A stretch of DNA of 43,314 nt from an uncultured bacterium (GCA_964429885.1 CAYSEO010000002.1:17072-60385), one strand, 5' to 3'. Counted from the stretch's first letter, positions 1,098 to 40,025 are shown. Numbers and translations: made by a program. The notes: generated by a model not told the origin, from the sequence alone.

Positions 1098-2891
1098 GTG
1101 CTCCTCTGTTTGAAACGGGCCGGGGGAGATCTATTACTGACGGAGCTGCTGGAGCGAATCAGTACCACCCGAGGCACAGTACAAGCCTTAGCCCGTAAGG
1201 GACGGGTCCAGATCAGTCAACGGCAGATCCTGCGTACCCTACAGGGGCCTGCGGTACCCTCCGATCAGCCCAAGGATCTAACCCCCGCTCAACAACAGGC
1301 GGTGACAGCGGTGGTGGAGACCTTGGATCGGGCTCAGACCTTTCTGCTCCATGGGGTAACGGGATCCGGCAAGACGGAGGTATACCTGCAGGTGATCGCG
1401 CAGGTATTGGCTCGGGGGCGATCTGCCCTGGTGTTGGTGCCCGAGATCGGTTTGACACCCCAGCTAACCGATCGGTTTCGAGCTCGGTTTGGATCCAAGG
1501 TATTGGTTTATCACAGTGGGTTATCAACAGGAGAGCGCTATGACACCTGGCGATCGATGCTTTCCTCCCAGCCTCAGGTGGTGGTGGGCACCCGTTCCGC
1601 CATCTTTGCTCCTTTGCCTCAACTGGGTCTGATCATCCTGGATGAGGAACATGATGATAGCTACAAACAGGATCAACCCCAACCCTGCTACCATGCCCGC
1701 ACCGTGGCCTATTGGCGCTCGATCCTCAGCCCCTGTCCCTTGATCCTGGGCAGCGCTACCCCTGCGGTGGAAACCTATGCTGCCAGTCTGAAAAACCGGA
1801 TCCAGCTCCTGATTCTCCCGGATCGGATCCCCAAAGCTGAGGGTGCTCCTCCCTCCATGCCCCCGATCAGCTTGGTGGATCTACGACTGGAGTTGGAGAA
1901 GGGCAATCGTTCCCCCTTCAGTCAATATTTACAGGAGGCCCTAGATCAGATCGCGGAACGACAGGAACAGGCGATCTTGTTTGTCCCCCGGCGGGGCTAC
2001 AGTACCTTCGTGCTCTGTCGCAGTTGCGGTGAACCTCTCAGCTGTGATCACTGTGATGTCTCCCTCACCTTCCACCAGACGGGCCAACATCTGCGCTGTC
2101 ATTACTGTGGTGATCGGCAGGTCTATCCCGATCACTGCCCCAGCTGTGGATCCCCCTATCTGAAACATTTCGGCAGTGGCACCCAACGCATCGAAGATCT
2201 GATGGCTCAACGCTGGCCCCAATTGCGGCTGCTCCGCTTCGATAGTGATACCACCAGTCGCAAAGGATCCCATCGAGAGATCCTGGATCGGTTCAATCAG
2301 GGGGAGGCGGATGTGTTAGTGGGCACCCAGATGTTGACCAAGGGCCTGGATGTACCTCAAGTCACCTTAGTGGGGGTCTTGGCTGCTGATGGGATCTTGA
2401 ATCAGGCGGACTTTCGGGCCGCTGAACGATCCTTTCAACTGCTGACCCAGGTAGCCGGACGAGCCGGACGGGGAGAACGAGCCGGACAGGTGATCATTCA
2501 AACCTATCTACCCGAACATCCCACCCTGCAATCGATCCGTAATTATGACTATGGGCAATTCATCACCCAGGAGCTCAGCCAACGTCAGGACAGTGGTTAT
2601 CCCCCCTACCGTAATCTGATCTTGATCCGACTCAGCAGTCCCGATCTCACTCGCCTACAACAGGGATGCCAACAAGTGCGGGAGCAACTAGAGGGTGTTC
2701 CGGCAGAGATCTTGGGGCCTTGCCCGGCTCAGGTGGAACGGGTGAGTGGACGCTATCGCTGGCAGATCCTCTTGAAGGAGTTGGACTCTGATCCTTGGCA
2801 ACGAGGCCGCTTAGCTCCCCAGTTGATGAGTTTGCGGGCACCGGCGGAAGTACGGATCAGCCTGGATGTGGATCCGTTGCGGATCCTGTGA
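1098..2891 (+). CDS. priA: primosomal protein N-prime (PriA), helicase core, Cys-rich zinc region and C-terminal domain
   Basis: Walker A GVTGSGKTEVY and DEEH box ILDEEHD. Cys cluster CRSCGEPLSCDHCDVSLTFHQTGQHLRCHYCGDRQVYPDHCPSCGS. Helicase motif GTQMLTKGLD. The frame continues upstream through EDLSPQQREV to the TGA at 1068. Reading 423..2891 as one frame gives 823 codons including the internal TGA and the terminal stop. Confidence 0.9.
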   Translation: MLLCLKRAGGDLLLTELLERISTTRGTVQALARKGRVQISQRQILRTLQGPAVPSDQPKDLTPAQQQAVTAVVETLDRAQTFLLHGVTGSGKTEVYLQVIAQVLARGRSALVLVPEIGLTPQLTDRFRARFGSKVLVYHSGLSTGERYDTWRSMLSSQPQVVVGTRSAIFAPLPQLGLIILDEEHDDSYKQDQPQPCYHARTVAYWRSILSPCPLILGSATPAVETYAASLKNRIQLLILPDRIPKAEGAPPSMPPISLVDLRLELEKGNRSPFSQYLQEALDQIAERQEQAILFVPRRGYSTFVLCRSCGEPLSCDHCDVSLTFHQTGQHLRCHYCGDRQVYPDHCPSCGSPYLKHFGSGTQRIEDLMAQRWPQLRLLRFDSDTTSRKGSHREILDRFNQGEADVLVGTQMLTKGLDVPQVTLVGVLAADGILNQADFRAAERSFQLLTQVAGRAGRGERAGQVIIQTYLPEHPTLQSIRNYDYGQFITQELSQRQDSGYPPYRNLILIRLSSPDLTRLQQGCQQVREQLEGVPAEILGPCPAQVERVSGRYRWQILLKELDSDPWQRGRLAPQLMSLRAPAEVRISLDVDPLRIL

Positions 2892-2958: not shown

Positions 2959-3249
2959 ATGCCGCGTTTAATGGTAACCCAAAGAATCTTACGCCAGATC
3001 CATCGGGGATTGGCACCGATCCTGTTGCTGCCTGTGTTGATCACCCTCTGCAGTGGAGCGCTCTATCAGGTGGCTCTGTTAGGGCAACAGGCTGGGGATT
3101 ATTACTGGATCCTGCAGGTCCATCGAGGTCATTTCGGGATCATCAACTTAGAGACGGTTTTTCCCTTCCTCAATAGTTTTGGTTTGTTAGTGATGACTGG
3201 CAGCGGTATCTCCATGTGGATCCAGATGCAAAGAAAGCGAGGTGAATGA
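2959..3249 (+). CDS. small integral membrane protein (about 96 aa, two hydrophobic helices; possibly PepSY-associated TM-helix-like)
   Basis: ATG at 2959 preceded by AGGAGAG. Hydrophobic stretches LAPILLLPVLITLCSGALY and FPFLNSFGLLVMTGSGISMW. The ORF track extends to 2866, but that extension overlaps the priA 3-prime end. Confidence 0.55.
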   Translation: MPRLMVTQRILRQIHRGLAPILLLPVLITLCSGALYQVALLGQQAGDYYWILQVHRGHFGIINLETVFPFLNSFGLLVMTGSGISMWIQMQRKRGE

Positions 3250-4085
3250 TGTTTCTACTCCAGCATACGCAGCTTCTGAACCGGCCTGGTTGTCTGATCG
3301 GGGAGGATCTCCTCTACCTCTACAATCGCTATTTTCAACATCAGCAAACCTATGGCAGAGAGGTTAGAGATTGGGTGATCTCACGGTCTCGCCAGCAGCT
3401 GGATCAAGACAAGGTGCATCTGGTAGTCGAAGGGGAAGCTGATCTGACGGTTTGGAGTCTGTTACCGGCCCACTACGTTCCGCCAGCCTCATCCCAAAAC
3501 CGATCCACAAAGTCCCACCCACCCCGTTCCTCCCTGGTACTCAAGCTATTGCAGGACTATCATCAGGGACAGAGAAATTTTCACAACATGGCCCTGGAGG
3601 GGAGCGATCTCAGCCAGGTCGATCTACCTCGGATCGATCTGAGCTATGGTTTGTTGAATGAGAGTTGTCTACGACGGGCCAACCTGACTCAAGGGAGCCT
3701 GGCCTGGGCCTATCTGAGGCAAGCGGATTTGCAGGAGGCCAATCTGAGGGAGACTCACCTGGAGGGGGCCTATCTGAACTGGGCTGATCTCTCCCAAGCG
3801 GATCTGAGTCGCAGTTGCTTGGTGCAGGCGGAGCTGACGGAGGCTTGTCTCAGGCAATCCCTGTTGTCTCAGGCTAATTTGCAGGGGGCGGTGTTACTGA
3901 ACGCCGATCTGCGGGGGGCCAATCTCCGCTATGCCGATCTCTCCCAAGCCAATCTGGCAGGGGCCGATCTTTCCCAAGCCGACTTGACGGGAGCCCAGGT
4001 ATCTCTGTCCAGCCTGCGTCGATCGCAGCTACACGAAACGATCTTGCCAACGGGTAAACCTGTCAGTGGACCTCTGTCCCTGTGA
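3246..4085 (+). CDS. pentapeptide-repeat protein with an N-terminal domain of unknown function
   Basis: C-terminal half is a long run of A(D/N)LxX pentapeptides (ANLRYADLSQANLAGADLSQADLTGAQV). An ATGA start/stop overlap with the upstream ORF suggests translational coupling. Confidence 0.85.
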   Translation: MMFLLQHTQLLNRPGCLIGEDLLYLYNRYFQHQQTYGREVRDWVISRSRQQLDQDKVHLVVEGEADLTVWSLLPAHYVPPASSQNRSTKSHPPRSSLVLKLLQDYHQGQRNFHNMALEGSDLSQVDLPRIDLSYGLLNESCLRRANLTQGSLAWAYLRQADLQEANLRETHLEGAYLNWADLSQADLSRSCLVQAELTEACLRQSLLSQANLQGAVLLNADLRGANLRYADLSQANLAGADLSQADLTGAQVSLSSLRRSQLHETILPTGKPVSGPLSL

Positions 4086-4284
4086 AGAATCGACGGAGGT
4101 ACGGATCCCCAGCGGATCCCGTCGGACAGGCGGGATCTGGGAGACTATGTCAACGCTTGTCTACGGAAAAACTGATCTGTGCTTGCTTCCAGTGGTTATC
4201 GAGTTACGTAGTATCGCGGTTCTCCCTGTACGAGAAGTGATGGAATATGGGTAGGTTCCCGAGAAGAGTAAGGTATCCATACAG

Positions 4285-5172
4285 ATGGCAATGATCGGTG
4301 ATCTTGAGGACTTTGGATTGGCAGAGCTGTTACAAGTGATAGGGCGAGGCAGCAAGAGTGGTCAGCTCTCCGTTTGGACCCCTTCAGGTGTGTCTCACAT
4401 CTGGTTTTATCAAGGACGAGTGGTTGCAGCCTCGCCTCCAGGTGGACAACCGGATTTACAACAGCGACTGCAGCAAAACCCAGAGATCCAGGTTCAGTGT
4501 GGTGGATCTGCTGAACGGGTAGTGACCAAGCTAGCTAACCTCTGCGGTCCGAGCACCCACCCCTTGGGTGCCTGTGTGAGGAAGCAGGGGTTGATCTCAG
4601 GGGGGGGGTTGACCCTGGTGTTTCGTCAGCAACTTCAGGATGGGGTTTACCCCCTATTTGAGTTGGAGTCTGGGCAGTTTAACTTTAATGCCAAGGCTCC
4701 TATCCCTTATGGAGAGATGACGGGGTTGAGCAAGGAATGTTTGGATATTGCCATCGAGGGACTGCGCCGGGTCAAGAGCAGAGATCAACAGATCCGCAAC
4801 CTGCCGTCGGCTGAGGCCTGTTTCTGTCGCACTTCTGATGATCTTCCCCTCGCTAGACTTTCCCCTGTAGAGTGGAACGTGTGGGAAAGGGTTTCCCCCC
4901 ACCGACTGCTACAGGAGATTGCCCAGGAAATGGAGATCGATCTGCCCACCATTCAGTACACCTGTGGACGCTTGTTACAAGTGGGTTTGATTCAAGAGAC
5001 GGTCCATTCCTCGTCAGTTGCTCAGCCCTCAAAGGTCCCTGGTAGCTGGGAGGCTCTGGATGTGATCTCCTCTGACCCTGCAGAACCCGAGAGAGAGAAG
5101 GAACCCATCAACAGTTCCTTGCTCAATCGGCTGGCCTCAGCCCTACGTGGGATCCAGAAGAATAGGCGTTAA
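4285..5172 (+). CDS. DUF4388 / PATAN-domain protein
   Basis: N-terminus MIGDLEDFGLAELLQVIGRGSKSGQLSV matches the characteristic DUF4388/PATAN opening (G-L-x-F-x-L-x-E-L-L-Q). Contains a G9 tract at 4600..4608. Confidence 0.7.
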   Translation: MAMIGDLEDFGLAELLQVIGRGSKSGQLSVWTPSGVSHIWFYQGRVVAASPPGGQPDLQQRLQQNPEIQVQCGGSAERVVTKLANLCGPSTHPLGACVRKQGLISGGGLTLVFRQQLQDGVYPLFELESGQFNFNAKAPIPYGEMTGLSKECLDIAIEGLRRVKSRDQQIRNLPSAEACFCRTSDDLPLARLSPVEWNVWERVSPHRLLQEIAQEMEIDLPTIQYTCGRLLQVGLIQETVHSSSVAQPSKVPGSWEALDVISSDPAEPEREKEPINSSLLNRLASALRGIQKNRR

Positions 5173-5317
5173 GCCTAGCTTTGTTCCCGATCTCCTCGTT
5201 GCACCCAGTTGGAGGTCATGGAATCTGTATGAGTTGGAGCTACTAAATATTGAGATACAGTGCATCGTTATGGGCACGATATCTTGTTCGAAGTGCTGAC
5301 ATCACAGGAGGATAATT

Positions 5318-5686
5318 ATGCCAGACATGGCATCTTTGGAAGAACTACTCAGGAACTTTGTTTCTTCTACCCAGGATGTTGAGGGTGCTGCCATTGTGAC
5401 CCCGGATGGTCTTCCCTTGGCTTCCGTTTTACCTGCCGGGATGGACGAGGAGCGCACCTCAGCCATGTCCGCAGCCATGCTGTCCTTGGGAGAAAGGATT
5501 GGTAGAGAATTGGTGCGAGGCGGGATCGAACGGATCTTCGTACAGGGAGACAAGGGTTATGGAGTCCTGACCAGTTGTGGACAGGATACGGTGCTGTTGA
5601 CTCTTGCCAATGCCCAGGTCAAGCAGGGCCTCCTTTTCCTGGAGATCAAGCGGGTGAGTGAAAGCATATCTGTGGCGATGCGATAG
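5318..5686 (+). CDS. Roadblock/LC7 (MglB-like) domain protein
   Basis: Strong SD (ACAGGAGGATAATT-ATG). Sequence VEGAAIVTPDGLPLASVLPAGMDEERTSAMSAAMLSLGERIGRELVRGGIERIFVQGDKGYGVL is typical of Robl/LC7/MglB. Confidence 0.85.
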   Translation: MPDMASLEELLRNFVSSTQDVEGAAIVTPDGLPLASVLPAGMDEERTSAMSAAMLSLGERIGRELVRGGIERIFVQGDKGYGVLTSCGQDTVLLTLANAQVKQGLLFLEIKRVSESISVAMR

Positions 5687-5776
5687 CACTCCTCAGCAAT
5701 TCTGAATCGCCCATGATCGACAGAGCTGACTATTCTAGTCTTCCCAAGAAATTTCACATCATGACGGAGTTTGACA

Positions 5777-6328
5777 ATGGCTATTGATCCTAAAAAACTA
5801 TTGGCTACATTGGCCTTCCGGACAGAATTAACCGATACCGATCGGGATCTGCTCAAGCGAAACGCGACTTGGGGAGAGACCATAGCACCCGAGATGGCTG
5901 ATTGTTTCTACAACTATCTCGATCGGGATACGGAGATGTTGGAGATCCTGAAAAAGCACAACCGAGATCGCTTGCGCCAGACTTTCATTGATTGGTTCAA
6001 GGAGATGTTTACAGGCATGGACAACTGGGGATCCGAGTACGCCCAACGGCGCTGGAAGATCGGTCTGGTGCATGTGCGAGTAGGAATTGGGCCTCAACAT
6101 GTTGTCCCCGCCATGTCTGCCGTGGTCCTGGAGGTTGGCAAACGGTTAAAAGAGGAAGGCAAGCCTGATGATCTGCGGAATACGCTGAGCAAGATCTGTA
6201 TGATCGATCTCTCTTTTATCGAGCAGGCTTATATCGATGTGGCTTGCAATGCAGTTCAACAGGAGACGGGCATGAGCGAAGCCCTGTTCAAGCGTCTGAT
6301 CGCCACTGGGGCCAAGGGGATAGACTAG
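5777..6328 (+). CDS. stand-alone sensor globin (protoglobin / globin-coupled-sensor type globin domain, no output domain)
   Basis: LTDTDRDLLKRN...IAPEMADCFYNYL...RLRQTFIDWFKEMFTG...YAQRRWKIGLVHVRVGIGPQHVVPAM follows the pattern of globin-coupled sensor domains. The putative proximal His lies in HVRVG. ATG at 5777; the ORF track starts at TTG 5771. Confidence 0.7.
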   Translation: MAIDPKKLLATLAFRTELTDTDRDLLKRNATWGETIAPEMADCFYNYLDRDTEMLEILKKHNRDRLRQTFIDWFKEMFTGMDNWGSEYAQRRWKIGLVHVRVGIGPQHVVPAMSAVVLEVGKRLKEEGKPDDLRNTLSKICMIDLSFIEQAYIDVACNAVQQETGMSEALFKRLIATGAKGID

Positions 6329-6383
6329 ATCCAGAGTTAGAAACGCCGATTCCGTTATCAGCAGTTGTTATCTCCCATGTTCC

Positions 6384-6929
6384 ATGCAACGCATTTTCAG
6401 AGTCGTGATCGCTGGCCCAGTGGGGTCTGGGAAATCCACCTTAATCCGCAGCATCAGTGAGATCGATGTGGTGGACACCGATCGAGCTGCCACCGATGAG
6501 ACGGCAACCCTCAAACCCAAAACTACCGTGGCGATGGATTTCGGTCGTTTGTCTCTCGGAGAGAACATGTGGCTACATCTCTATGGGACTCCAGGGCAGG
6601 CCCGTTTCAACTTCATGTGGGATCTGCTGATCAGGCGAGCCCACGGTTATGTATTGTTGGTCCCTGCTCATTGTCCCAAAGTGTTTCGAGAGGCTCGGGC
6701 GATCAAGCTGTTTATGCAGCAACGGGTAGAGTTACCCCTGGTGGTAGGGGTCACCCATACCGATCACCCCAAGGCTTGGGATCCGGATGATATCCGTTTG
6801 ACTCTAGCTGATGAGGAGCAGATCTCCTATCCCACTACTGTGGTGGATCCCCGTGATCCGGCTTCAGTGGCCTCATCTTTGCTGCTGATGGTGGAGCAGT
6901 TGGCAGGTGAGGCAGCGGCCATGGGTTAG
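6384..6929 (+). CDS. small Ras-like GTPase (MglA / conservon CvnD-like ATP/GTP-binding protein)
   Basis: P-loop GPVGSGKST, switch II LYGTPGQ, and a THTD motif at the G4 position. Size is 181 aa. Confidence 0.85.
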   Translation: MQRIFRVVIAGPVGSGKSTLIRSISEIDVVDTDRAATDETATLKPKTTVAMDFGRLSLGENMWLHLYGTPGQARFNFMWDLLIRRAHGYVLLVPAHCPKVFREARAIKLFMQQRVELPLVVGVTHTDHPKAWDPDDIRLTLADEEQISYPTTVVDPRDPASVASSLLLMVEQLAGEAAAMG

Positions 6930-6999: not shown

Positions 7000-8064
7000 A
7001 TGAGGAGGATCCGGACTGTGCAGCTGCAGGAAGTGGCGAAGCGATTGGGCTGTCTGTTTGAGGGGGATCCGACCCTTCAGATCCAGGGGGCAGCGTCACT
7101 GGGAGAGGCGCAGCCGGGGGATCTGAGTTTCATCAGTGATGTCAAATATCTGCCCCTGCTAGAACAAACCCAGGCCAGTGCTGTGTTGGCCCCTGATCGG
7201 ATCATGCCTCCCGCTCACTTGGGATGTTTACGGACCTCTTACCCTCGGCTGACCTTTGCTCAGGCCATCGAGATCTTCTATCAGCCCTTTCGGCAAGCGG
7301 TAGGGATCCATCCCAGTGCGGTGATCGCGGCGGATGTCCAGTTAGGAGAGGCTGTGGCCATTGGTCCCCAAGTGGTGATCGAGTCCGGGGTCAGCATCGG
7401 GGCCGGGGCTCAGATCCATGCCGGGGTGGTGATCTATCCAGGGGTGCAGATCGGCCAGAATTGCCAACTGTTTGCGAACTGTGTGATCCATGAGCGATCC
7501 GTGATTGGTGATAACTGTTTGATCCATAGTGGGGCGGTGATCGGGGATGACGGCTTCGGTCATGTGCCTCAGGCGGATGGCAGTTGGTATCGAATGTCGC
7601 AGTCGGGGATCGTGGTTTTAGAGAACGGGGTAGATGTGGGCTCCAATGTCACCATCGATCGGCCTGCGGTGGGGGAGACGCGCATCGGTGAAGGGACCAA
7701 GATCGACAATCTGGTGCAGATCGGCCATGGAGTCCGGACGGGTCGTCATTGTGTCCTGGTGGCCCAGGTGGGATTAGCTGGAGGGGTAGAACTGGGACAA
7801 CGGGTGATCCTGGGGGGACAGGTGGGGGCAGCGGGCGATATTCAGATCGGCGACGGGGTAACGGCGGTGGGACAGACAGGGATCACAGGCTCCATTCCAC
7901 CGGGACAGATGATCGCGGGTTATCCCCATCAACTCCATGCGGATTGGCGGCGGACAGCAGCGGCGGAGCGCAGGTTGCCGGAGTTGTTGAAAACGGTGCG
8001 ACGCTTGGAGCGACGGCTGCGGGATCTCGAAAATCAGTTGGGATCTGAGGCGGGTCATGATTAA
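7000..8064 (+). CDS. lpxD: UDP-3-O-acylglucosamine N-acyltransferase
   Basis: LpxD N-terminal domain (LQEVAKRLG...GDLSFISDVKYLPLLEQTQASAVL), then left-handed beta-helix hexapeptide repeats (GAQIHAGVVIYPGVQIGQNCQLFANCVIHERSVIGDNCLIHSGAVIGDDGFG) and a C-terminal helix. Confidence 0.9.
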   Translation: MRRIRTVQLQEVAKRLGCLFEGDPTLQIQGAASLGEAQPGDLSFISDVKYLPLLEQTQASAVLAPDRIMPPAHLGCLRTSYPRLTFAQAIEIFYQPFRQAVGIHPSAVIAADVQLGEAVAIGPQVVIESGVSIGAGAQIHAGVVIYPGVQIGQNCQLFANCVIHERSVIGDNCLIHSGAVIGDDGFGHVPQADGSWYRMSQSGIVVLENGVDVGSNVTIDRPAVGETRIGEGTKIDNLVQIGHGVRTGRHCVLVAQVGLAGGVELGQRVILGGQVGAAGDIQIGDGVTAVGQTGITGSIPPGQMIAGYPHQLHADWRRTAAAERRLPELLKTVRRLERRLRDLENQLGSEAGHD

Positions 8065-9464: not shown

Positions 9465-10118
9465 TCAGGCATACTTAGCGATCTGTTCCTGTAGCCAGCG
9501 ATTAGCACCCTGGTTGCCCTCTTCCAGAGTATGGATCAGGGCTCCCTCTAGGACGGCAACGGGTAAGCCCAGTAGAGCGGCTGAGATCTCTGTAGGGTAA
9601 TAGCGCCCATCAGTACTGAGTTGAACGATAGAGGCTCGTAGACTGCCCAGATCAATGACCCAATATTCTTTTAAACCCAAGGCTGAATAGAGCTTTTTCT
9701 TGCCCAGATCTGAGATCAAAACATCATCCAATACCTCGACGATTAGATCTGGGGTACGATGCTGATTGAGATTCAGAGTAGTCTGACGATCTCGTTTCCA
9801 TTGCACGGCAGGATCCCCAATATAAACGACTTGATCAGGACAGGCCGCTTGTTGGTTGGGTTTCTCCAGATGACAGCGACGGTAGGCATTGAAACTCTGA
9901 TCTCGCCGGGTAAACCATTGGAAAAATAGACTGGGGAAGAGATCGTTGATCCGCACACAATTGAGACTCTGGGGGATCCGGTCGATCAGTAAATAACCCC
10001 GATGGAAGAAGAGTCTGGGATCCAAGTCTGGTAGATCTCGGATGCTCTCATAGGCATCCCAGGAGGCAGGTTGCCAGGTGGGTTGAAAGTTTGAGTCTGT
10101 AGGAATGGGAGCAGTCAT
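9465..10118 (-). CDS. Uma2-family (DUF820) putative endonuclease
   Basis: C-terminal PDLIVEVL...KKKLYSALGLKEYWVIDL pattern typical of the Uma2 restriction-endonuclease-like fold. Confidence 0.75.
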   Translation of the reverse strand: MTAPIPTDSNFQPTWQPASWDAYESIRDLPDLDPRLFFHRGYLLIDRIPQSLNCVRINDLFPSLFFQWFTRRDQSFNAYRRCHLEKPNQQAACPDQVVYIGDPAVQWKRDRQTTLNLNQHRTPDLIVEVLDDVLISDLGKKKLYSALGLKEYWVIDLGSLRASIVQLSTDGRYYPTEISAALLGLPVAVLEGALIHTLEEGNQGANRWLQEQIAKYA

Positions 10119-10120
10119 CT

Positions 10121-10690
10121 CTAGATCCAGACGAAGATCTCCTCCACTAAAGCACTAAACCCTGGCAGCAGAGGAGAGGTAAGGGTATCCCCTCCGATCA
10201 ACGTACTCTCTAACTGTAATTGAGCCTGGTGACGACGATAGATCTGTACCGTTTGTTGTTGCCAATTGACGATCCAATATTCCTGTACTCCCTGGCGAGA
10301 ATATAGCTTTAACTTGATCTCCTTATCCCGCTGCTCGTTCTGTTCTCCTGGAGAGAGGATCTCGATCACCAGATCTGGGGCCACCGTGAGATGACCTGCA
10401 GCATCCAATCCCTGCTCCAAAAGCTCTCGCCGGATCCAGATCACATCCGGGATCACGGCATCGTGGGGGCCGAGAATAAGGCCAGGGGTCTGAAAGGTTC
10501 TGCCCAGTTCGGTCTGATCTGACCAGCGTTCCAGGGACAAGCTCAGCCGCATGGCCACGCTTTGGTGACGTAAATGAGGAGATCGAGTCACGAACAGCTC
10601 TCCGTCAACGATCTCATACCGTTTCCAGCCGCCATCATCTGGCATCGCCTCCAGATCTCGGGTTGTCCAGCGTAGGGAAGGAGCCACCAT
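10121..10690 (-). CDS. Uma2-family (DUF820) putative endonuclease
   Basis: RYEIVDGELFVTRSPHLRHQ...PDLVIEILSPGEQNEQRDKEIKLKLYSRQGVQEYWIVN is the canonical Uma2 motif set. It lies 2 nt from the downstream paralog. Confidence 0.85.
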   Translation of the reverse strand: MVAPSLRWTTRDLEAMPDDGGWKRYEIVDGELFVTRSPHLRHQSVAMRLSLSLERWSDQTELGRTFQTPGLILGPHDAVIPDVIWIRRELLEQGLDAAGHLTVAPDLVIEILSPGEQNEQRDKEIKLKLYSRQGVQEYWIVNWQQQTVQIYRRHQAQLQLESTLIGGDTLTSPLLPGFSALVEEIFVWI

Positions 10691-12494: not shown

Positions 12495-14267
12495 TCAGCG
12501 ATTGGGATCGGCTAGGTTTCTAAACTGAGTAAACTGATTCTCAAACAGGAGCTTGACCGTACCGATGGGGCCATTACGATGTTTGGCGATGATCACCTCG
12601 GCGATCCCCCGTTCATTAGTATTGGGATCGTAATACTCCGGTCGGTAGAGCATCATCACGATATCCGCATCCTGTTCGATACTGTTATGGACCAGGATCT
12701 TATTGGCGACAAAGTTGTGGTGGCGAGGCATCTCGATGTCATACACCTCCACAGGCTCTGAGGGATCACTGATGGATTGGATCGGATCCCAGATCAGCTC
12801 ATCTTGGATCGCCAGAGCGATCTCCTCATCCAATTGTAGATCGTCCAAAGATTTCCAGCCGGATCGGGTAAAGAAGGGATGGTTGCCGGTGGCCTGGATC
12901 TCATGTCTGAGCCGAGTGGTGAGGGTATAAACGGACTTGCTGCCATTGGAAAACACCTTGACGGGTTGTTGCGGCACCAATCGTCCCCGAGCATTCAAAC
13001 TCATCAATCGGGGTAAAGATCGACTGGCGGTATTGAGCAATTGCACCAGCGTCCAGGTCTTACCCGTGTCCACATCCAACACTGTGGTATCTCCAACCAA
13101 ACAGCCGGATTCCCTCAGATCTGACAATTGAGGGCGCTTATCAGAACGGGATTCCACAGCCCGACTCAGCTGAGAAAGCACCACCACCGGGGCAGAGAGC
13201 TCCTTAGCTAATCCTTTGAGCCCACGGGACATGCGGGACAGCTCCTGAACACGGTTGTCTGAGGTGGAACCCTGCATCAACTGCAGATAGTCGATCAAGA
13301 TCATGCCCAAAACCCCTCCGGATTCGGCTTGCAGACGACGGGCTTTGGAGCGGATCTCAGTCACATTACAATTGGGGGTATCGTCAATGTAGATCGGGGT
13401 CTGGGCCAGATAGCCAAACGCCTGACTCAAACGCTGCCATTCATTCTCACTGATCCGACCGGAGCGGAGCCGATTGCTTTCGATCCGAGCCTCACTGGCT
13501 AACATCCGCTGTACCAATTGTTCCCGCGACATCTCCAGGCTAAACACCGCCACGGGTAATCGTGAATAGGCCGCCACATTGCGGGCCACATTCAAAGAGA
13601 AACTGGTCTTACCCATAGAGGGCCGACCCGCAATAATGATCAGATCAGAGGGCTGCAGACCCTGGGTAATGTTGTCCAGATCGATAAACTTGGTGGGGAT
13701 CCCTGGTAGATCGGAATCCCCCTGAAACTTCTCCTCCAGATCGGAAAAGATGTTCAGTAAGATCTCCGAGGCTGGCATCAGTGCCCGTTGGATCCGTTCC
13801 TGGGTGATACCAAAGATCTCCTGCTCGATCTGATCCATGATCTGGGGGATCGGCTGGCTGGTGTCGTAGGCAAACTTGGCAATGGAGTTGCTGGCCTCGA
13901 TCAGCTTGCGGCGGGTGTACTTATCCAGCACCAGCTTGGCATACTGATCGATATTGATGCTACTGACGGTTTGATCCAAGAGCCGCCGGATGGACCCCGG
14001 TCCCCCTACCTTATCCAGCCGACCGTGATCATCTAGGTGCGCCGTCACCGTCATCAGATCCGTGGGCTGCCCCTGACTGTGGAGCAACAGGGCCGCTCGA
14101 TAGATCTCCTGATGGGCCGTGATGTAGAACGCCTCCGGTCGCAACAGCTCCGCCACCCGAGTTAAGGCGTCCGGGTCCAAGAGGATCCCCCCTAAGATCT
14201 CCTCCTCTGCCTCGATATTTTGTGGGGGTAGCCGGTCGCCACCCGTCAGATCGTAATCATTGGCCAC
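12495..14267 (-). CDS. dnaB: replicative DNA helicase DnaB, containing a mini-intein
   Basis: PPQNIEAEEEILGGILLDP N-terminus, Walker A AGRPSMGKTSF, Walker B MILIDYLQLM. At 590 aa it is about 140 aa longer than a typical DnaB because of the insertion between RESG and SIEQDADIV. Confidence 0.95.
   Translation of the reverse strand: MANDYDLTGGDRLPPQNIEAEEEILGGILLDPDALTRVAELLRPEAFYITAHQEIYRAALLLHSQGQPTDLMTVTAHLDDHGRLDKVGGPGSIRRLLDQTVSSINIDQYAKLVLDKYTRRKLIEASNSIAKFAYDTSQPIPQIMDQIEQEIFGITQERIQRALMPASEILLNIFSDLEEKFQGDSDLPGIPTKFIDLDNITQGLQPSDLIIIAGRPSMGKTSFSLNVARNVAAYSRLPVAVFSLEMSREQLVQRMLASEARIESNRLRSGRISENEWQRLSQAFGYLAQTPIYIDDTPNCNVTEIRSKARRLQAESGGVLGMILIDYLQLMQGSTSDNRVQELSRMSRGLKGLAKELSAPVVVLSQLSRAVESRSDKRPQLSDLRESGCLVGDTTVLDVDTGKTWTLVQLLNTASRSLPRLMSLNARGRLVPQQPVKVFSNGSKSVYTLTTRLRHEIQATGNHPFFTRSGWKSLDDLQLDEEIALAIQDELIWDPIQSISDPSEPVEVYDIEMPRHHNFVANKILVHNSIEQDADIVMMLYRPEYYDPNTNERGIAEVIIAKHRNGPIGTVKLLFENQFTQFRNLADPNR
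12684..13103 (-). mobile_element. DnaB mini-intein (140 aa, no homing-endonuclease domain)
   Basis: Starts with Cys (TGT; ACA on + strand at 13101..13103) in CLVGDTTVL (block A). Block B ATGNHPFFT, block F VYDIEMPRHHNFVAN, block G ILVHN, then +1 Ser (SIEQDAD). Only about 40 residues lie between blocks B and F. Confidence 0.9.
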
Positions 14268-17406: not shown

Positions 17407-18159
17407 ATGCCCAACGCCACCGCCCGCTCCATCCTGCCCCAAGCCCTCTATCCCTGGATCCATCACGGGGCCAAGCGTCTGTTTCCAGATTGCCTTTGGG
17501 AGCTTCCCGATCCAGTTCAAACCCAGATCGCCCTCACCTTTGATGATGGCCCTCACCCGGAGTACACCCCGGCCTTGCTCCAGGTGCTGGAGGGTTGGGG
17601 GATCCAGGCCAGCTTCTTTCTACTGGGACACCGAGTGGAACGATGGCCCCAGATCACCGCTCAGATCCGGGCCGCCGGTCACCATCTGGGCCTACATGGA
17701 TATCAACACCGCTCCTTCCCCACCTTATCGACAGAGGAACTGCAGCGATCTCTCCTCCAGACCCAAACCCTGATCGCCTCCGCCTGTCAGGAGAGCCCTG
17801 ATCAGTATCGGGATGTACGTCCCCCCAATGGCCTGTTTCTGCCCCAAACCCTCAGCCAACTCCGCCGTTGGGGCTATCGGCCTGTGATGTGGAGTATCGT
17901 GCCTGAGGACTGGATCCTGCCCCCCGTGGAGCTGGTGATCGAGCGGGTCTGCCGTCGGGTTTATCCTGGGGCGCTGATTGTGCTCCATGACGGAATGTAT
18001 GGGGGATCCCAGGTGGTGCAGACTGTGGAGCAGTTGATCCCGCGTTTACAGGACCAGGGATATCGTTTTCTCACCCTTGGGGACCCGAGAACTGGGGCGC
18101 CCGCGCCAGATCCAGGGCCTCAGAATCCGCTGTCAACCGTTCCAGATCCCAGATCTTGA
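17407..18159 (+). CDS. polysaccharide deacetylase (NodB homology domain)
   Basis: ALTFDDGPHPEYTP, FFLLG and LGLHGYQHRSF motifs. ATG at 17407; the ORF track starts at TTG 17377. The 3-prime tail overlaps the convergent WD40 gene. Confidence 0.85.
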   Translation: MPNATARSILPQALYPWIHHGAKRLFPDCLWELPDPVQTQIALTFDDGPHPEYTPALLQVLEGWGIQASFFLLGHRVERWPQITAQIRAAGHHLGLHGYQHRSFPTLSTEELQRSLLQTQTLIASACQESPDQYRDVRPPNGLFLPQTLSQLRRWGYRPVMWSIVPEDWILPPVELVIERVCRRVYPGALIVLHDGMYGGSQVVQTVEQLIPRLQDQGYRFLTLGDPRTGAPAPDPGPQNPLSTVPDPRS

Positions 18160-19237
18160 GGGTGCCATCGGAGCTACCTGTGATGATCGAGCGACCATCC
18201 GGGGTGATCAAGACGGTGCGCACATCCCGCTCATGTTCCGTCAGGGTATGGAGCAACAATCCCGTCCTCAGATCCCACAGCTTGATGGTGTTGTCGGCGC
18301 TGCCACTCACCAGATAGCGACCCTCAGGGCTAAAGGCCACAGCCCGGATCCAGGAGTCATGACCCATCAGGGTACGCATCAAGGCTCCCGTCTCCAGATC
18401 CCAGAGCTTGATCGTTCGATCAGAACTGCCACTCACCAGGATCTTGCCATCGGGACTCAGGGCCAGTGCCCGCACCCAGCTTTGATGCCCCGAGATCCGA
18501 GCGATCGGTTGCTGCGATCCCAGATCCCAGACCCGAATGCTAGCGTCCACAGGCTCGCTGTGATCCTCTGGTTGTTTCAGCCAGGATCCACTAAAAAAAG
18601 TCCAACCATCAGTGCTCAACACCAGCGAACGCACCCCCGCCTCCAGATCCGCCAGGGTGCCCGTCAGCTCGCCCGTCTCCAGATCCCAGAGCTTAATGCT
18701 GCGATCGGAGCTGCCACTGATCAGCCGCTGCCCGTCTGGGGTGATGGTCAGAGCAAAGATGTTACCGGAGTGATCCGTTAGGGTATACCGCAGTCGTTGC
18801 CGATCCAGATCCCAGACCTTGACCGTATCATCAGCGCTACCGCTTACCAGAGTCCGACCGTCAGGGCTGAGAGCTAGGGTATAGACCCGACCGCTATGAC
18901 CCTCCAGGGTATTCAACAGTTGCCCACTCTCCAGATCCCAGATCTTGAGGGTGTGATCGGCACTGGCACTGATCAAACGTTGTTGGTCAGGGGTGATCAC
19001 GATGGATTCCACCCGATCTTGATGTCCCGTCAGGGTGTGGAGCGCCTGGGTGGGATCGGTGGGTTGGTTTTGAGAGAGGTGTTGTTGTCGGAGAGCACAG
19101 ATCAGGCTGAAGGGCGTAACGCCGAACACGAGGATCCCGAGGGAGAGGGCGATGGGGGCCCAAATGTGAGTCAGGGGTCTGAGTCGAAGAGAGGTGGGAG
19201 GCTCCGTCAGAGCCTGAGGCAGTCTAGGTGAGGTCAT
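18071..19237 (-). CDS. WD40-repeat protein with N-terminal transmembrane anchor
   Basis: Seven or more repeats of the H..V.....SPDG..L.SGS.D.TIK(L/I/V)WDL pattern. Hydrophobic IWAPIALSLGILVFGVTPFSLICAL near the N-terminus. Confidence 0.9.
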   Translation of the reverse strand: MTSPRLPQALTEPPTSLRLRPLTHIWAPIALSLGILVFGVTPFSLICALRQQHLSQNQPTDPTQALHTLTGHQDRVESIVITPDQQRLISASADHTLKIWDLESGQLLNTLEGHSGRVYTLALSPDGRTLVSGSADDTVKVWDLDRQRLRYTLTDHSGNIFALTITPDGQRLISGSSDRSIKLWDLETGELTGTLADLEAGVRSLVLSTDGWTFFSGSWLKQPEDHSEPVDASIRVWDLGSQQPIARISGHQSWVRALALSPDGKILVSGSSDRTIKLWDLETGALMRTLMGHDSWIRAVAFSPEGRYLVSGSADNTIKLWDLRTGLLLHTLTEHERDVRTVLITPDGRSIITGSSDGTLKIWDLERLTADSEALDLARAPQFSGPQG

Positions 19238-37049: not shown

Positions 37050-39830
37050 TTAAGACTGTTTACCTCCCTCCTGAGCCAGAGAGGACAGGGGAAGTCGGAT
37101 CGTAAAGGCGGTCTGTCCATCGCCACTCTCCACAGAGATCTTGCCTCCCAACCACTCTACAGCTCGTTTTACCAGCGAGAGCCCTAGACCCGTGCCCCCT
37201 TGCTGCCACTGATCCGCCTTAGGGATCCGATAGAACTTTTCAAAGAGATTGGGTAGGTGATCACTGGGGATCGCAACTCCGGTGTTGATGATCTGAAACT
37301 CTAGGGTCATGGGATCCAGTGAGCGAGCCCTAATCTTGATCTGGTGCTGAGGTGGGGTGTACTTGCAGGCGTTGGTGATCAGCTCTGAGATGACCCGCTC
37401 TAGGGTGAGGCGATCGGTCTGTAGAACCTCTAGGTTGGGATCGATATCCAGCTCAAGCTGTTGTTGTCTTTGTTGAGTTCGTTCCTGAAAGGATCCTACA
37501 ACTCTCTCTAGCCAATCCCGGATTGAGATCATCTCTGGAATCAGAGCTTTGCTGCTGGTCTCTAGGCGTTGTAGATCTAAGAGATCGTTGATTAAAGAGA
37601 TCTCTCGGTTGCACTCCCGTTCTAGGATATTGAGATAGTGACTTTGTTTCTCTGGGGATTCCACCGCCAGCTGTAACATCTTGGCCGCCATCTTGATGTT
37701 GGTCATCGGAGTGCGGAGCTCATGGGAGACTGTAGCAACAAAATCATCCTTGAGTTGGTTGAGCTTCTCCAGTTCCTTGACCTGGGCTTGAGCTGTCTCA
37801 TATAGTCGAGCTTGTCGGATCGCGATGGCACATTGAGCGGCCACCTGCTGCATCAGCTGGATCTCAGCCTCGCTAAACAATTCTGGGCTGGGCTTAGAGG
37901 CACCTAAGGATCCCAGTAGGATCTGATTATCAGCGATAGGGCAGATCAGTAAGGTGTGATTCTGTTCCTGGGGCCAGAGTGGACGTTCTAGGAAACAACA
38001 CTGCACCACCTGTCCCTGACTCAGCTGATCGATCAGAGGCTTGAGATCGGAGATCGTCTCTGAGACCTCGCCATAACTTAAACCTATCTCTGGATCAAAA
38101 TAACAGATCAGCGAGGAGATCTGTTGCTCCAGATCTATTTGTCGGATCGCCACCCGAGTTAATCCTAATCCTTCGCCTAACGATTGAGTCGCTACTGCTA
38201 ATAGATGAGATTCATCTAGGCTCTCTCGAATATTTTGAGTGATCCGGCGTAGCAGTTCCTCGTTTTGGAGTGCTCGTTGCAGTTGTTGGGTACGAGTCTG
38301 AACCTGTTGATCTAACTCTGTGTTGATCTGTTGTACCTGTCGGTAAAGCTCCCCATGTTGGATTGCCACTGCCAATTGATCTGCCACTTGCTTGATCAAC
38401 AATTGCTCATCCCATGTCCACTGCCGATAGCGATCACACTGTTGTACACAGAGGATCCCTTTCACCTGATCGTCCAATCGGATAGAGACCGCCAGCATCG
38501 ACTTGATCTGGAGAGACTCCACGAGAGGCATCACCTCCATCAATAAAGGGTGCTCCTGGGCATTATCTACCACTACCGGATCCACTTGGGCCAGAACTGC
38601 TTGAGCATGACGATTATCCTCAATCGGGATCTGTGTATCGAGGACGGCCCAGGTTTTCTCCAGGGTAGATGTCATGGTGTACTGAAAGGCTGAATCCGTC
38701 GGGGAACAGAGGGCGACAACACCACGGCTGGTCTGGAAGGTGGATAGTAGGGCCTCCGTAGCCCGCTCTAAGATCAGATCCAGATCTAAGCTCTGACGGA
38801 TGGCGTCAACCAGTAAATTCAGGAGCTTCTCTCGCCGAGCTTGTTGTAGAGTCAGCTCATACAGCTGGGATTGTTGAATGGCGATGGACAATTGCGCTGT
38901 GATCTGTCGGAGTACCTCGATCTCCCAGGTGTGCCAGATCCGAGGTCCTGTGCATTGGTGAGCGATCATTAATCCCCAGACTCCTTCGTCGTGGAGGATG
39001 GGTACCACCAGATTGGCTTGCACCTGAAACTGACTCAAAAGCTTTACATGACACTCCTGTAGATCCCCAGCATAGATGTCCTCATGGCAGCGGATCTGAC
39101 CTTGCCGAAAGGGTTCAATCTCTCCTCTGCCGAAGCAAGGATCATGAATCGTTCTTCCCAAGATCGAAAGACGAGGCCCCACCACGGACTCCACAGTGAT
39201 GTCACCACTCCCGTCGATATTGAGTTGATAGATCACTACTCGATCGACCTTCAACCACTGACGGATCTCTGAGACCGCTGTGTTCAAAACATCGTTTAAC
39301 TGTAGGGATTGACGGATCTGTTGGCTGATACGATTCAGGATCCGCCCCTGTTTGGTGCGCAGCTGCATCAATATCTCCGCCTGCTTGTTCTCCGTGATAT
39401 CCCTGATGATCACCAGGACCGTATCTGGACCACAGATGGAGATGCGGGCCTCCTCGTAACGGATCTCTCCCTCCATCTGTAAGGAGTATTCATATTGTTG
39501 TAGTTGTCTTGTCTGCAGAGCTCGCTCCACATAGGTCATCCGCTCTTGAGCCGCATCTGCAGGCATGACGTCATAGATCGTGGCAGGGATGGAGGAGAAG
39601 AGTCGATCATGTCTATAGATCTTGACTCCCTCACCCGAGTTAAGGGGTCGTAGCGTCCCATCTCGGGACATCAAGATCAACAGATCAGGGATGGAGGAAA
39701 CCAGACTGGCTTCTAGGGTGCTGAGTTGTTGGAGGGGATAAGCAGGTCCCTGATCCGAAGCTGACGGGGTAGGACGACCCAGTAATCGATCACTCAGGGT
39801 GCTCAGGGCTTGTCTCAGGGATGCCAACAT
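37050..39830 (-). CDS. multi-domain sensor histidine kinase (PAS + several GAF + HisKA + HATPase_c)
   Basis: H-box VATVSHELRTPMTNI, N-box LITNACKYTP and G-boxes IINTGVAI / GGTGLGLSLV. Repeated GAF-like blocks upstream (VVIYQ..., WGLMIAHQC..., GILCVQQC..., LLGSLGASK...). ATG at 39830; the ORF track starts at TTG 39866. Confidence 0.9.
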   Translation of the reverse strand: MLASLRQALSTLSDRLLGRPTPSASDQGPAYPLQQLSTLEASLVSSIPDLLILMSRDGTLRPLNSGEGVKIYRHDRLFSSIPATIYDVMPADAAQERMTYVERALQTRQLQQYEYSLQMEGEIRYEEARISICGPDTVLVIIRDITENKQAEILMQLRTKQGRILNRISQQIRQSLQLNDVLNTAVSEIRQWLKVDRVVIYQLNIDGSGDITVESVVGPRLSILGRTIHDPCFGRGEIEPFRQGQIRCHEDIYAGDLQECHVKLLSQFQVQANLVVPILHDEGVWGLMIAHQCTGPRIWHTWEIEVLRQITAQLSIAIQQSQLYELTLQQARREKLLNLLVDAIRQSLDLDLILERATEALLSTFQTSRGVVALCSPTDSAFQYTMTSTLEKTWAVLDTQIPIEDNRHAQAVLAQVDPVVVDNAQEHPLLMEVMPLVESLQIKSMLAVSIRLDDQVKGILCVQQCDRYRQWTWDEQLLIKQVADQLAVAIQHGELYRQVQQINTELDQQVQTRTQQLQRALQNEELLRRITQNIRESLDESHLLAVATQSLGEGLGLTRVAIRQIDLEQQISSLICYFDPEIGLSYGEVSETISDLKPLIDQLSQGQVVQCCFLERPLWPQEQNHTLLICPIADNQILLGSLGASKPSPELFSEAEIQLMQQVAAQCAIAIRQARLYETAQAQVKELEKLNQLKDDFVATVSHELRTPMTNIKMAAKMLQLAVESPEKQSHYLNILERECNREISLINDLLDLQRLETSSKALIPEMISIRDWLERVVGSFQERTQQRQQQLELDIDPNLEVLQTDRLTLERVISELITNACKYTPPQHQIKIRARSLDPMTLEFQIINTGVAIPSDHLPNLFEKFYRIPKADQWQQGGTGLGLSLVKRAVEWLGGKISVESGDGQTAFTIRLPLSSLAQEGGKQS

Positions 39831-40025
39831 GACTAGGACGGATCGGCAGGGCTGAAAGGGCAACAATAACAGGGGGGGCCTTTATTGGTGCTCATTATAA
39901 CTTAGGGGAAACGTCCCTTTCTCAGCGGTTTCCGTGTTACCTTTTGCCTGCCCCGATCTGAGCCGAACCCTTGTACCTCTCTTCCCGAGCTAGTGTGACC
40001 TAAATGTCTCTATGGGAAACATTTC

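Follow-up and report, generated by a model that had tools for sequence, protein, structure and literature searches.

A stand-alone sensor globin encoded beside a Roadblock protein, a small GTPase and a PATAN protein: a putative signalling module of cyanobacteria

The DNA analysed here is a stretch of 43,314 nucleotides (nt), called the window throughout, in which we studied a block of four open reading frames (ORFs) at positions 4285-6929. All four ORFs lie on the + strand, are separated by gaps of 145, 90 and 55 nt, and code in this order for a PATAN protein, a Roadblock/LC7 protein, a globin and a small P-loop GTPase (Table 1). Each of the four proteins matches a single clear Pfam family above the curated cut-off (DUF4388/PatA_N, Robl_LC7, Protoglobin and ATP_bind_1, respectively), and the ATP_bind_1 match of the GTPase is accompanied by weaker Ras, Roc and MMR_HSR1 matches. 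NCBIfam assigned no name to any of the four. Clusters of the same genes were found in many cyanobacteria, and we propose with moderate confidence that the globin acts on the GTPase through the Roadblock protein.

A first-pass annotation, made from the sequence alone, had already listed four co-directional ORFs with gaps of about 145, 90 and 55 nt, the four family assignments, and the motifs GPVGSGKST, GTPGQ and HVRVGIGPQH. The ORF coordinates, the Pfam scores and the translations agree with it in all these points; only the length of the globin had to be corrected, from 184 to 183 amino acids (aa), counted from the ATG at 5777. A TTG at 5771 is a possible start further upstream, and the orthologues open with MAIDP at the ATG.

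Table 1. Position of the block, its flanking genes and related features. Positions refer to the window unless a locus (L) is named; all loci are those of the cross-genome comparison described in the text.
Feature	Position	Strand	Length	Remarks
priA	1098-2891	+		flank
Pentapeptide-repeat gene	3246-4085	+		flank
Conserved non-coding block preceding the PATAN gene	4150..4262	+		about 76% identity over 107 nt to L081
PATAN (DUF4388/PatA_N) protein with helical insert and C-terminal winged-helix-turn-helix (HTH)-like domain	4285-5172	+	295 aa	Pfam, AlphaFold2 (AF2)
G9 homopolymer in the PATAN ORF, encodes SGGG	4600-4608	+		only run of at least 8 nt in the window
Roadblock/LC7 (MglB/CvnB-like) protein	5318-5686	+	122 aa	Pfam Robl_LC7 3.4e-16
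Sensor single-domain globin (SSDgb), Tlr1989 orthologue, conserved C-terminal tail	5777-6328	+	183 aa	Pfam Protoglobin
Small P-loop GTPase, CvnD / MglA group 2-5 type	6384-6929	+	181 aa	Pfam ATP_bind_1 1.4e-14
lpxD	7000-8064	+		flank
F5 family gene, example	L015:6782-7240			
F5 family gene, example	L084:4510-4980			
F5 family gene, example	L085:4421-4891			
F5 family gene, example	L086:3989-4465			
F5 family genes, others	38 further loci			

Since every gene between positions 18 and 9450 of the window is on the + strand, the common direction of the four genes is in itself weak evidence for a connection between them. Conservation across genomes, described below, indicates that the arrangement is not due to chance. 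A promoter scan of the block gave no + strand promoter, and a terminator scan gave no convincing internal terminator, the terminator-like hairpins being weak and mostly intragenic; a search of the block against Rfam at E 1 or better was without a match. The short gaps, the lack of a convincing internal terminator and the upstream noncoding block, which is kept in the closest relative, suggest that the four genes form a putative operon.

The genomic neighbourhood of the globin was compared by a pattern scan with one genome per species (185,579 species). This yielded 273 globin loci, of which the best 80 were analysed, the partner genes being sought by tblastn and by profile hidden Markov models built from the window proteins. 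All of these best 80 loci are cyanobacterial. Represented among them are Thermostichales, Pseudanabaena, Thermosynechococcus, Leptolyngbya/Nodosilinea, Elainellales, Nostocales, Coleofasciculaceae and Xenococcaceae; most of the lineages with the cluster are benthic, form mats or are filamentous. For the linkage counts we used the 68 loci whose flanks were at least 3.5 kb long on either side, and scored a partner when it was situated within 4 kb of the globin. Roadblock is linked in 62/68 loci, the GTPase in 56 and PATAN in 44; all three partners are present in 44 loci and none in 6. Roadblock directly adjoins the globin in 56 of 81 cases (in 68 when genes of a further family, F5, treated below, are ignored), the GTPase does so in 18 and PATAN in 3, and the globin-Roadblock gap has a median of 151 nt.

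The order of the genes is variable. With PAT, ROB, GLO and GTP standing for the PATAN, Roadblock, globin and GTPase genes, Thermostichales have the order PAT-ROB-GLO-GTP as in the window, Nostocales have PAT-GTP-ROB-GLO, and Pseudanabaena, Leptolyngbya and Thermosynechococcus have GLO-ROB-GTP-PAT, which in the last genus corresponds to tlr1989 and the genes downstream of it. Thus at least three orders exist, nearly all genes are co-directional, and the flanking genes differ between genomes and are unrelated. As the association is kept despite shuffled order and changing flanks, the link between these genes is most readily understood as a functional one. Synteny in related genomes, which had been named as a check on the first reading, is therefore strong across at least eight cyanobacterial lineages. 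In Calothrix sp. NIES-3974 (L083:8018-14555) the globin cluster lies directly beside a divergent hydrogenase-maturation cluster (hypA/B/C/D/E/F); this adjacency, seen in one genome only, could reflect an oxygen-related context or could be a coincidence.

One could argue that the adjacency is meaningless and that the globin hitch-hikes beside an abundant and mobile Roadblock/GTPase cassette. Roadblock, GTPase and F5 genes are indeed multi-copy and arrayed in some genomes (L077, L078), and the six loci out of 68 in which the globin has no partner would fit. Against this stand the linkage of Roadblock in 62 of the 68 loci from deeply divergent orders, with three gene orders and varied flanks, and the co-directional genes with their short gaps. 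We regard such an explanation as hardly credible, and a meaningless adjacency is effectively excluded by the synteny. The cluster is better explained as a conserved cyanobacterial signalling module with a core of Roadblock, globin and GTPase and with the PATAN-winged-HTH protein as a frequent accessory; as a whole this is the best explanation we can offer, and a reasonably probable one.

The accessory position of PATAN is suggested by the closest relative of the block, a TARA metagenome scaffold (L081) whose globin is 91% identical and which has the same priA, pentapeptide-repeat and lpxD flanks. The PATAN gene is wholly missing from this scaffold owing to a clean indel, the region of about 4263-5296 in the window being represented by about 134 nt (L081:3060-3193). 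The upstream noncoding block and the ribosome-binding region of Roadblock are kept, so that in L081 the counterpart of 4150-4262 lies in front of Roadblock. This noncoding block matches neither the sigma-70 consensus nor any Rfam family; it may act as the promoter of the operon or form its 5' leader. Because L081 retains the rest without PATAN, the PATAN protein appears to be dispensable to the core trio. The first-pass annotation had cast it as the effector of the system: its family was borne out and it is linked in 44/68 loci, but its role is not an obligate one, and by these comparisons PATAN is the loosest member of the cluster.

The globin matches the Protoglobin profile (PF11563) over residues 16-154 with 3.8e-18 and 66.4 bits against a cut-off of 25. 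Pfam finds no transmitter domain in the 183 aa, Protoglobin being the only domain, and since no transmitter is fused to it the protein is an SSDgb and not a globin-coupled sensor (GCS). SSDgbs have been recognised as a class (PMC7475203). All 120 homologues among the matches listed measure 173-199 aa, and the family is small and close-knit, comprising 596 clusters at 90% identity; in a representative library of 1.84 billion proteins only 4 representatives scored below 1e-30 and 24 below 1e-10.

Among the PDB sequences the best match is 8h17_A, 'Tlr1989 protein' (1.9e-68, about 60% identity), followed by GsGCS of Geobacter, HemAT of Bacillus and AfGcHK of Anaeromyxobacter. The entry 8H17, released on 2023-04-26, bears the title 'Crystal structure of the Globin domain of Thermosynechococcus elongatus BP-1'. 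An AlphaFold model of the block globin, built on 22 orthologues, has a predicted local distance difference test score (pLDDT) of 90.8. Foldseek aligned it to 8h17 with a target TM-score (TMt) of 0.93 and a root-mean-square deviation of 1.3 Å, and gave TMt values of 0.84 for 2w31, 0.85 for 5ohf and 0.80 for 1or6. Sensor globins rank at the top of this search (E 1e-5 to 1e-4), GsGCS, AfGcHK and HemAT coming after 8h17, whereas flavohemoglobin, Vitreoscilla-type globins and the protoglobin of M. acetivorans follow at a great distance (E 0.02 or worse, 0.07 for the last). Pfam and Foldseek thus confirm the earlier view of a globin of the sensor (S) family without a transmitter, and the 3-on-3 globin fold is closest to that of GCS globin domains.

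Two residues point to heme binding. H99, the first His of HVRVGIGPQH (context GLVHVRVG), falls on the proximal His in the alignments with HemAT ('SIHLRIG') and GsGCS ('HAHVRVG'), and Y45 (DCFYNYL) falls on the Tyr of 'DAFYKNL' in HemAT; in the literature on HemAT and AfGcHK these positions are F8 and B10. Both residues are invariant in 22 cyanobacterial orthologues, and the proximal His is the sole invariant column across 62 distant multidomain relatives. We predict that the globin binds heme via H99, with Y45 on the distal side. The proximal His candidate named in the first-pass annotation, and the globin fold at 5777..6328 on which its reading depended, are supported by these alignments and by the 8H17 orthologue. 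Conservation runs beyond the globin fold into a C-terminal helix, a tail of about 20 residues in which E163, T164, G165, L170, F171, R173 and G178 are invariant in the 22 orthologues. This tail is a candidate docking element.

Tlr1989 of Thermosynechococcus elongatus BP-1 is an orthologue of the block globin and likewise stands alone. Its locus has the order GLO-ROB-GTP-PAT (L048, L061), whereas the block has PAT-ROB-GLO-GTP. A study by Mathur et al. from 2023 (Int J Biol Macromol 240:124471, PMID 37076076) reportedly calls Tlr1989 a 'single sensor hemoglobin domain' in its title, from which, together with the name of the PDB entry, heme and ligand binding are presumed; judging by the title, that study deals with a thermostable hemoglobin domain in isolation. 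The GCSs HemAT, AfGcHK, GsGCS, EcDosC and BpeGReg have the S-family fold, His F8 and Tyr B10 in common with the block globin. They carry a fused transmitter, whereas the presumed transmitter of the block globin would be encoded by the neighbouring genes. The nearest multidomain relatives of the block globin are globin-histidine kinases and globin-methyl-accepting chemotaxis proteins (MCPs), the outputs of the 62 nearest being histidine kinase, MCP, PAS and GGDEF domains; a small GTPase with Roadblock lies outside the known GCS outputs.

A globin without a transmitter could also be an output of the module rather than its input, namely a protective enzyme (NO dioxygenase, peroxidase-like scavenger or O2 buffer) that is governed by the GTPase or merely co-expressed in micro-oxic or nitrosative stress. 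Single-domain globins are often enzymatic, protoglobins with nitrite reductase and peroxynitrite isomerase activity have been described according to the titles of the papers, and one Calothrix cluster adjoins hyp hydrogenase-maturation genes. Yet the protein belongs to a sensor family, and in the Foldseek ranking flavohemoglobin, Vitreoscilla-type globins and the M. acetivorans protoglobin come only after the sensor globins. Moreover, the cluster is without a reductase partner, and detoxification genes are not typically linked so tightly, and in so many lineages, to a regulatory GTPase pair. We therefore consider an enzymatic role improbable and keep to a sensory one.

The Roadblock protein matches the PDB sequences 7f8m (4.5e-25) and Streptomyces CvnB5 (3leq, 2e-8). 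Its gene is preceded by a strong AGGAGG ribosome-binding site, and the Asp-Gly pair of its PDGL motif is conserved in 99 sequences. The motifs of the GTPase were derived from 78 cyanobacterial relatives. G1 is GxxGxGK[ST], G2 is KxxTTVAxDFG, and G3, YGTPGQxRF, is invariant in 78/78; G4 has the family-specific form THxD (T in 74, H in 75 and D in 76 of the 78). The Arg-finger position, next to the G2 Thr, is occupied by Thr (K-x-x-T47-T48), which is the residue that aligns with R53 of Thermus MglA, the best solved relative of the GTPase (E 9.5e-5 in the PDB sequence search).

According to Wuichet and Sogaard-Andersen (PMC4316618), MglA groups 2-5 are characterised by GTPGQ, by a Thr where group 1 MglA carries its intrinsic Arg finger and by an MglB partner with an Asp-Gly pair, and the conservon protein CvnD falls within them. 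The GTPase/Roadblock pair of the block has all three features, and the GTPase is for this reason assigned to groups 2-5. It had been listed as a P-loop GTPase in the first-pass annotation, and a P-loop GTPase it is, of the CvnD/MglA group 2-5 type with THxD and not a canonical MglA. The MglA/MglB systems of Myxococcus and Thermus likewise consist of a Ras-like GTPase and its Roadblock regulator. Although no solved structure matches better than Thermus MglA, the similarity is weak (E about 1e-4); group 1 MglA has an intrinsic Arg finger where the block GTPase has Thr, G3 reads TVPGQ in the MglA/MglB switch and GTPGQ in the block, and RomR/RomX are not present in the block.

A natural fusion was found in a JGI metagenome: the 242-aa protein P0349 joins Robl_LC7 and ATP_bind_1 (PF03259+PF03029) in one chain and is 60% identical to the block GTPase. 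Because it fuses the two, it is independent evidence that Roadblock and the GTPase operate as a pair.

In the PATAN protein the DUF4388/PatA_N profile matches residues 5-165 (3.7e-24, 85.5 bits). The profile has 122 positions, and its stretching over these residues implies an insert in the domain. In the AF2 model (pLDDT 83) the PATAN domain comprises residues 1-167, with an alpha-helical insertion formed by helices 58-126. It is followed by a beta-alpha-alpha-alpha-beta unit (residues 179-239), a disordered segment (244-272) and a conserved terminal helix (277-292). When the model was compared with the folds in the PDB, no match had an E below 0.02; those to GATOR1 and LuxR-type proteins were not significant. 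Pfam finds no Response_reg match and thus no receiver domain, so that the protein is not a response regulator of the PatA/PixG type. Hot-spring Thermostichales (L001, L003 and L004, Thermostichus-type 'Synechococcus' H55-H65) have two tandem PATAN genes upstream of Roadblock-globin-GTPase.

The known PATAN-receiver regulators PatA, PixG, PixE and TaxP have the N-terminal PATAN/DUF4388 domain with its alpha-helical insertion in common with the block protein. They carry a CheY-like receiver, whereas the block protein has the HTH-like domain and the C-terminal helix instead. Their input is phosphorylation; any input to the block protein would come from the GTPase. The type IV pilus motor PilB1 is a binding partner of cyanobacterial PATAN regulators of the PixG/PixE type (Han 2022 and Jakob 2020, cited in PMC9090330), and the occurrence of PATAN genes close to MglA/MglB genes has been described (Makarova 2006; Wuichet 2014, PMC4316618).

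With the same sensing by the globin, the output could be transcriptional, if the state of the GTPase controlled DNA binding by the winged-HTH-like domain of PATAN. The unit 179-239 of the AF2 model and the weak MarR_2, HTH_31, HTH_24 and HTH_IclR matches that recur for it across the PATAN family would suit this idea. But every one of these HTH matches is under the Pfam threshold, the fold match in the PDB is not significant, the known PATAN proteins work by protein-protein contact with PilB1, and PATAN is dispensable in the nearest relative. A transcriptional output of this kind thus seems rather unlikely to us.

When all ORFs of the 80 loci were clustered, a fifth conserved family, F5, was found in 42 loci. 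F5 proteins are highly conserved and about 152 aa long (152-158 aa), and their genes are always co-directional with the others and usually adjoin Roadblock. The family has the conserved motifs LGDFSSIVCFKA, AGRxRGK, CSAGE, GKxTESVLRGG and HDV. F5 was searched for in the window and is absent there. A V4R-type domain was considered for F5 and rejected, as there is no Pfam match at E 0.1 or better, no NCBIfam match and no PDB sequence or profile match; a cryptic globin was rejected as well, the hhalign probability being 1.2%. F5-Roadblock pairs are repeated in Coleofasciculus (L077, L078). The closest homologues of the block GTPase (59-66% identity) are encoded in PAT-ROB-F5-GTP clusters, and in these sister clusters F5 holds the exact position of the block globin, between Roadblock and GTPase. 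Globin and F5 co-occur in many loci. By these comparisons, what stands between Roadblock and GTPase seems to be interchangeable, as in a swappable slot.

A corresponding slot exists in the conservons of Streptomyces (CvnA kinase, CvnB Roadblock, CvnC DUF742, CvnD GTPase), which have the same four-gene order X-Roadblock-Y-GTPase. Both CvnD and the block GTPase have ATP_bind_1, GTPGQ and Thr for the Arg finger, and the block Roadblock matches CvnB5 as given above. The X and Y positions of the conservon are taken by a histidine kinase and DUF742, those of the block by the PATAN-winged-HTH protein and the heme globin; G4 is THxD in the block and NxFD in group 2; and the block belongs to a cyanobacterium, the conservon to an actinobacterium. 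No kinase, of the CvnA membrane type or other, was found in 4285-6929 or in the conserved part of the 80 related loci, and the only kinase in the window is an ORF at 37050-39866, about 30 kb off and on the opposite strand. DUF742 matches none of the four block proteins nor F5. The C-terminus of PATAN was considered separately as a DUF742 (CvnC)-like domain; this candidate was rejected, there being no match other than the sub-threshold MarR/HTH ones. The first-pass annotation had placed the globin in the sensor slot. By position it is instead in the slot of CvnC and not in that of the sensor kinase CvnA, whose place is held by PATAN.

This position raises the alternative that the globin serves the Roadblock-GTPase pair as a constitutive adaptor or third subunit, with the role of F5 or CvnC (platform, GEF-like (guanine nucleotide exchange factor-like) or localisation function), its heme being structural or non-signalling and the input being elsewhere. 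The shared slot speaks for it, as does the presence of both globin and F5 in many loci, and synteny gives no direction of input. On the other side, the domains to which the globin is most closely related (GsGCS, AfGcHK, HemAT) are genuine ligand sensors, and the ligand-contacting B10 Tyr is invariant, which would be needless for a purely structural heme. Homology between F5 and the globin is undetectable by hhalign, so that their equivalence is positional only. An adaptor function is in our opinion unlikely, although less so than an enzymatic role or a transcriptional output.

We thus return to a globin that signals to the GTPase via Roadblock. In this mechanism the globin would bind heme by H99 (F8) with Y45 (B10) on the distal side, and its conformation would shift upon O2, NO or CO ligation or with the redox state of the iron, as in the globin domains of GCSs. 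Having no transmitter attached, it would act in trans. The likeliest contact would be the Roadblock dimer, since Roadblock is its most constant gene neighbour, and residues 163-181, the invariant C-terminal tail, could make the contact. The globin would hold Roadblock or let it go, and so tune an action of Roadblock on the GTPase like that of a GTPase-activating protein (GAP) or GEF, and thereby the GTP/GDP state of the GTPase. For Myxococcus, MglB has been reported to have GAP and GEF properties, and RomR to regulate by sequestering MglB (PMC13408092). The GTP-bound GTPase would then engage downstream partners, the co-encoded PATAN-winged-HTH protein being the best candidate.

The output may be surface motility or cell polarity responding to oxygen or redox state, or, as discussed, transcription via the HTH-like domain. 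Motility or polarity appears likely because the PATAN domains of PixG and PixE bind PilB1, and it would fit the benthic, mat-forming and filamentous distribution of the cluster. The identity of the partners rests on homology and synteny; the direction of the signal, its dependence on heme ligands and the output are what we infer from them. As a whole we judge the proposed globin-Roadblock-GTPase module to be somewhat probable.

Several observations weigh against it. The globin is alone in 6/68 loci, and PATAN is missing from L081 and from a third of the loci. Among the 62 nearest multidomain relatives of the globin none is fused to Roadblock, GTPase or PATAN. The GTPase family, with 5345 clusters against the 596 of the globin family, is about nine-fold larger, which implies that most such GTPase modules function without a globin. 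Finally, G4 in the form THxD keeps the Thr and Asp of the guanine-specificity motif [NT]KxD but has His instead of the canonical Lys. That Lys is missing from groups 2 and 3 as well, yet CvnD9 is a GTPase (PMC4316618), and guanine specificity of the block enzyme is plausible.

In the literature we found no paper linking a globin to a Roadblock/GTPase module, nor one treating a protoglobin and a roadblock protein together, in a search outside of which most subscription-journal papers lie. Wuichet 2014 (PMC4316618) and a 2021 survey of globin neighbourhoods mention neither a globin-GTPase link nor these partners. The earlier statement that a globin-controlled small-GTPase module had not been described therefore agrees with the searchable literature. 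SSDgbs, the structure of Tlr1989, the occurrence of PATAN near MglA/MglB and the conservons are each known separately; their combination appears to be new. We put forward only tentatively, as something less than probable, that this is the first heme-based gas or redox sensor with a prokaryotic Ras-like GTPase as output, that it serves oxygen-responsive polarity or pilus motility, resembling aerotaxis, in mat-forming and surface-motile cyanobacteria, and that its input slot can be filled by globin, F5 or, in conservons, DUF742.

To our knowledge, SSDgbs have been catalogued for about twenty years and have no known signalling partner. We likewise know of no inputs for bacterial Roadblock/GTPase modules beyond those of Myxococcus and Streptomyces, and of no study of the PATAN domain other than in fusion with receiver domains. 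An operon joining globin, Roadblock/GTPase and PATAN offers a concrete and testable partner for each of them. If the proposal is true, small GTPases would join the list of outputs of heme-based gas sensors, and cyanobacteria that face steep daily oxic-anoxic swings would have a means of controlling motility or polarity by oxygen or redox state; the swappable slot would explain the purpose of the third subunit of conservon-type systems. The system is tractable, as the Thermosynechococcus orthologue has a crystal structure and both Thermosynechococcus and Nostoc can be manipulated genetically.

The first-pass annotation had further remarked on a low GATC density and a G9 tract in the block. The tract is real, and the density is marginally low. 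GATC occurs at 15.9/kb in the block and at 21.8/kb in the whole window, and 3.9% of equal-sized sliding windows are as low; the dip is due to the PATAN and Roadblock genes alone. Being marginal and accompanied by an ordinary GC content (0.51-0.54), the low density was rejected as an indication of special regulation or of DNA of foreign origin. About 0.8 G9/C9 runs are expected by chance in the window, and the Gly-Gly-Gly encoded by the tract is not conserved in the orthologues. A phase-variation signal was likewise rejected, the tract being within chance expectation and not conserved, and we give neither feature any weight.

GATC is over-represented in the window (1-43314) as a whole, with 944 copies, 5.7-fold above the expectation from composition, in every flanking context. 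Of these contexts CGATCG is the rarest, so that the HIP1 octamer GCGATCGC does not account for the excess. The over-representation suggests strong selection or a mutational bias tied to a GATC-specific methylation or repair system.

Elsewhere in the window, on the - strand, the gene of the replicative helicase DnaB (12495-14267) is interrupted by an intein-splicing domain, with DnaB_C matching over residues 189-584 and Intein_splicing at 3.1e-17. Two tandem ORFs on the same strand (9465-10118 and 10121-10690) code for 217 and 189 aa, and the L081 counterpart of the first is annotated as Uma2 (PF05685, putative restriction-endonuclease-like). The kinase ORF mentioned above (37050-39866, - strand) codes for a 938-aa PAS-GAF-GAF-GAF histidine kinase that is phytochrome/cyanobacteriochrome-like and has no link to the block. 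A 388-aa WD40 beta-propeller protein, equally without a link to the block, is encoded at 18071-19237 on the - strand.

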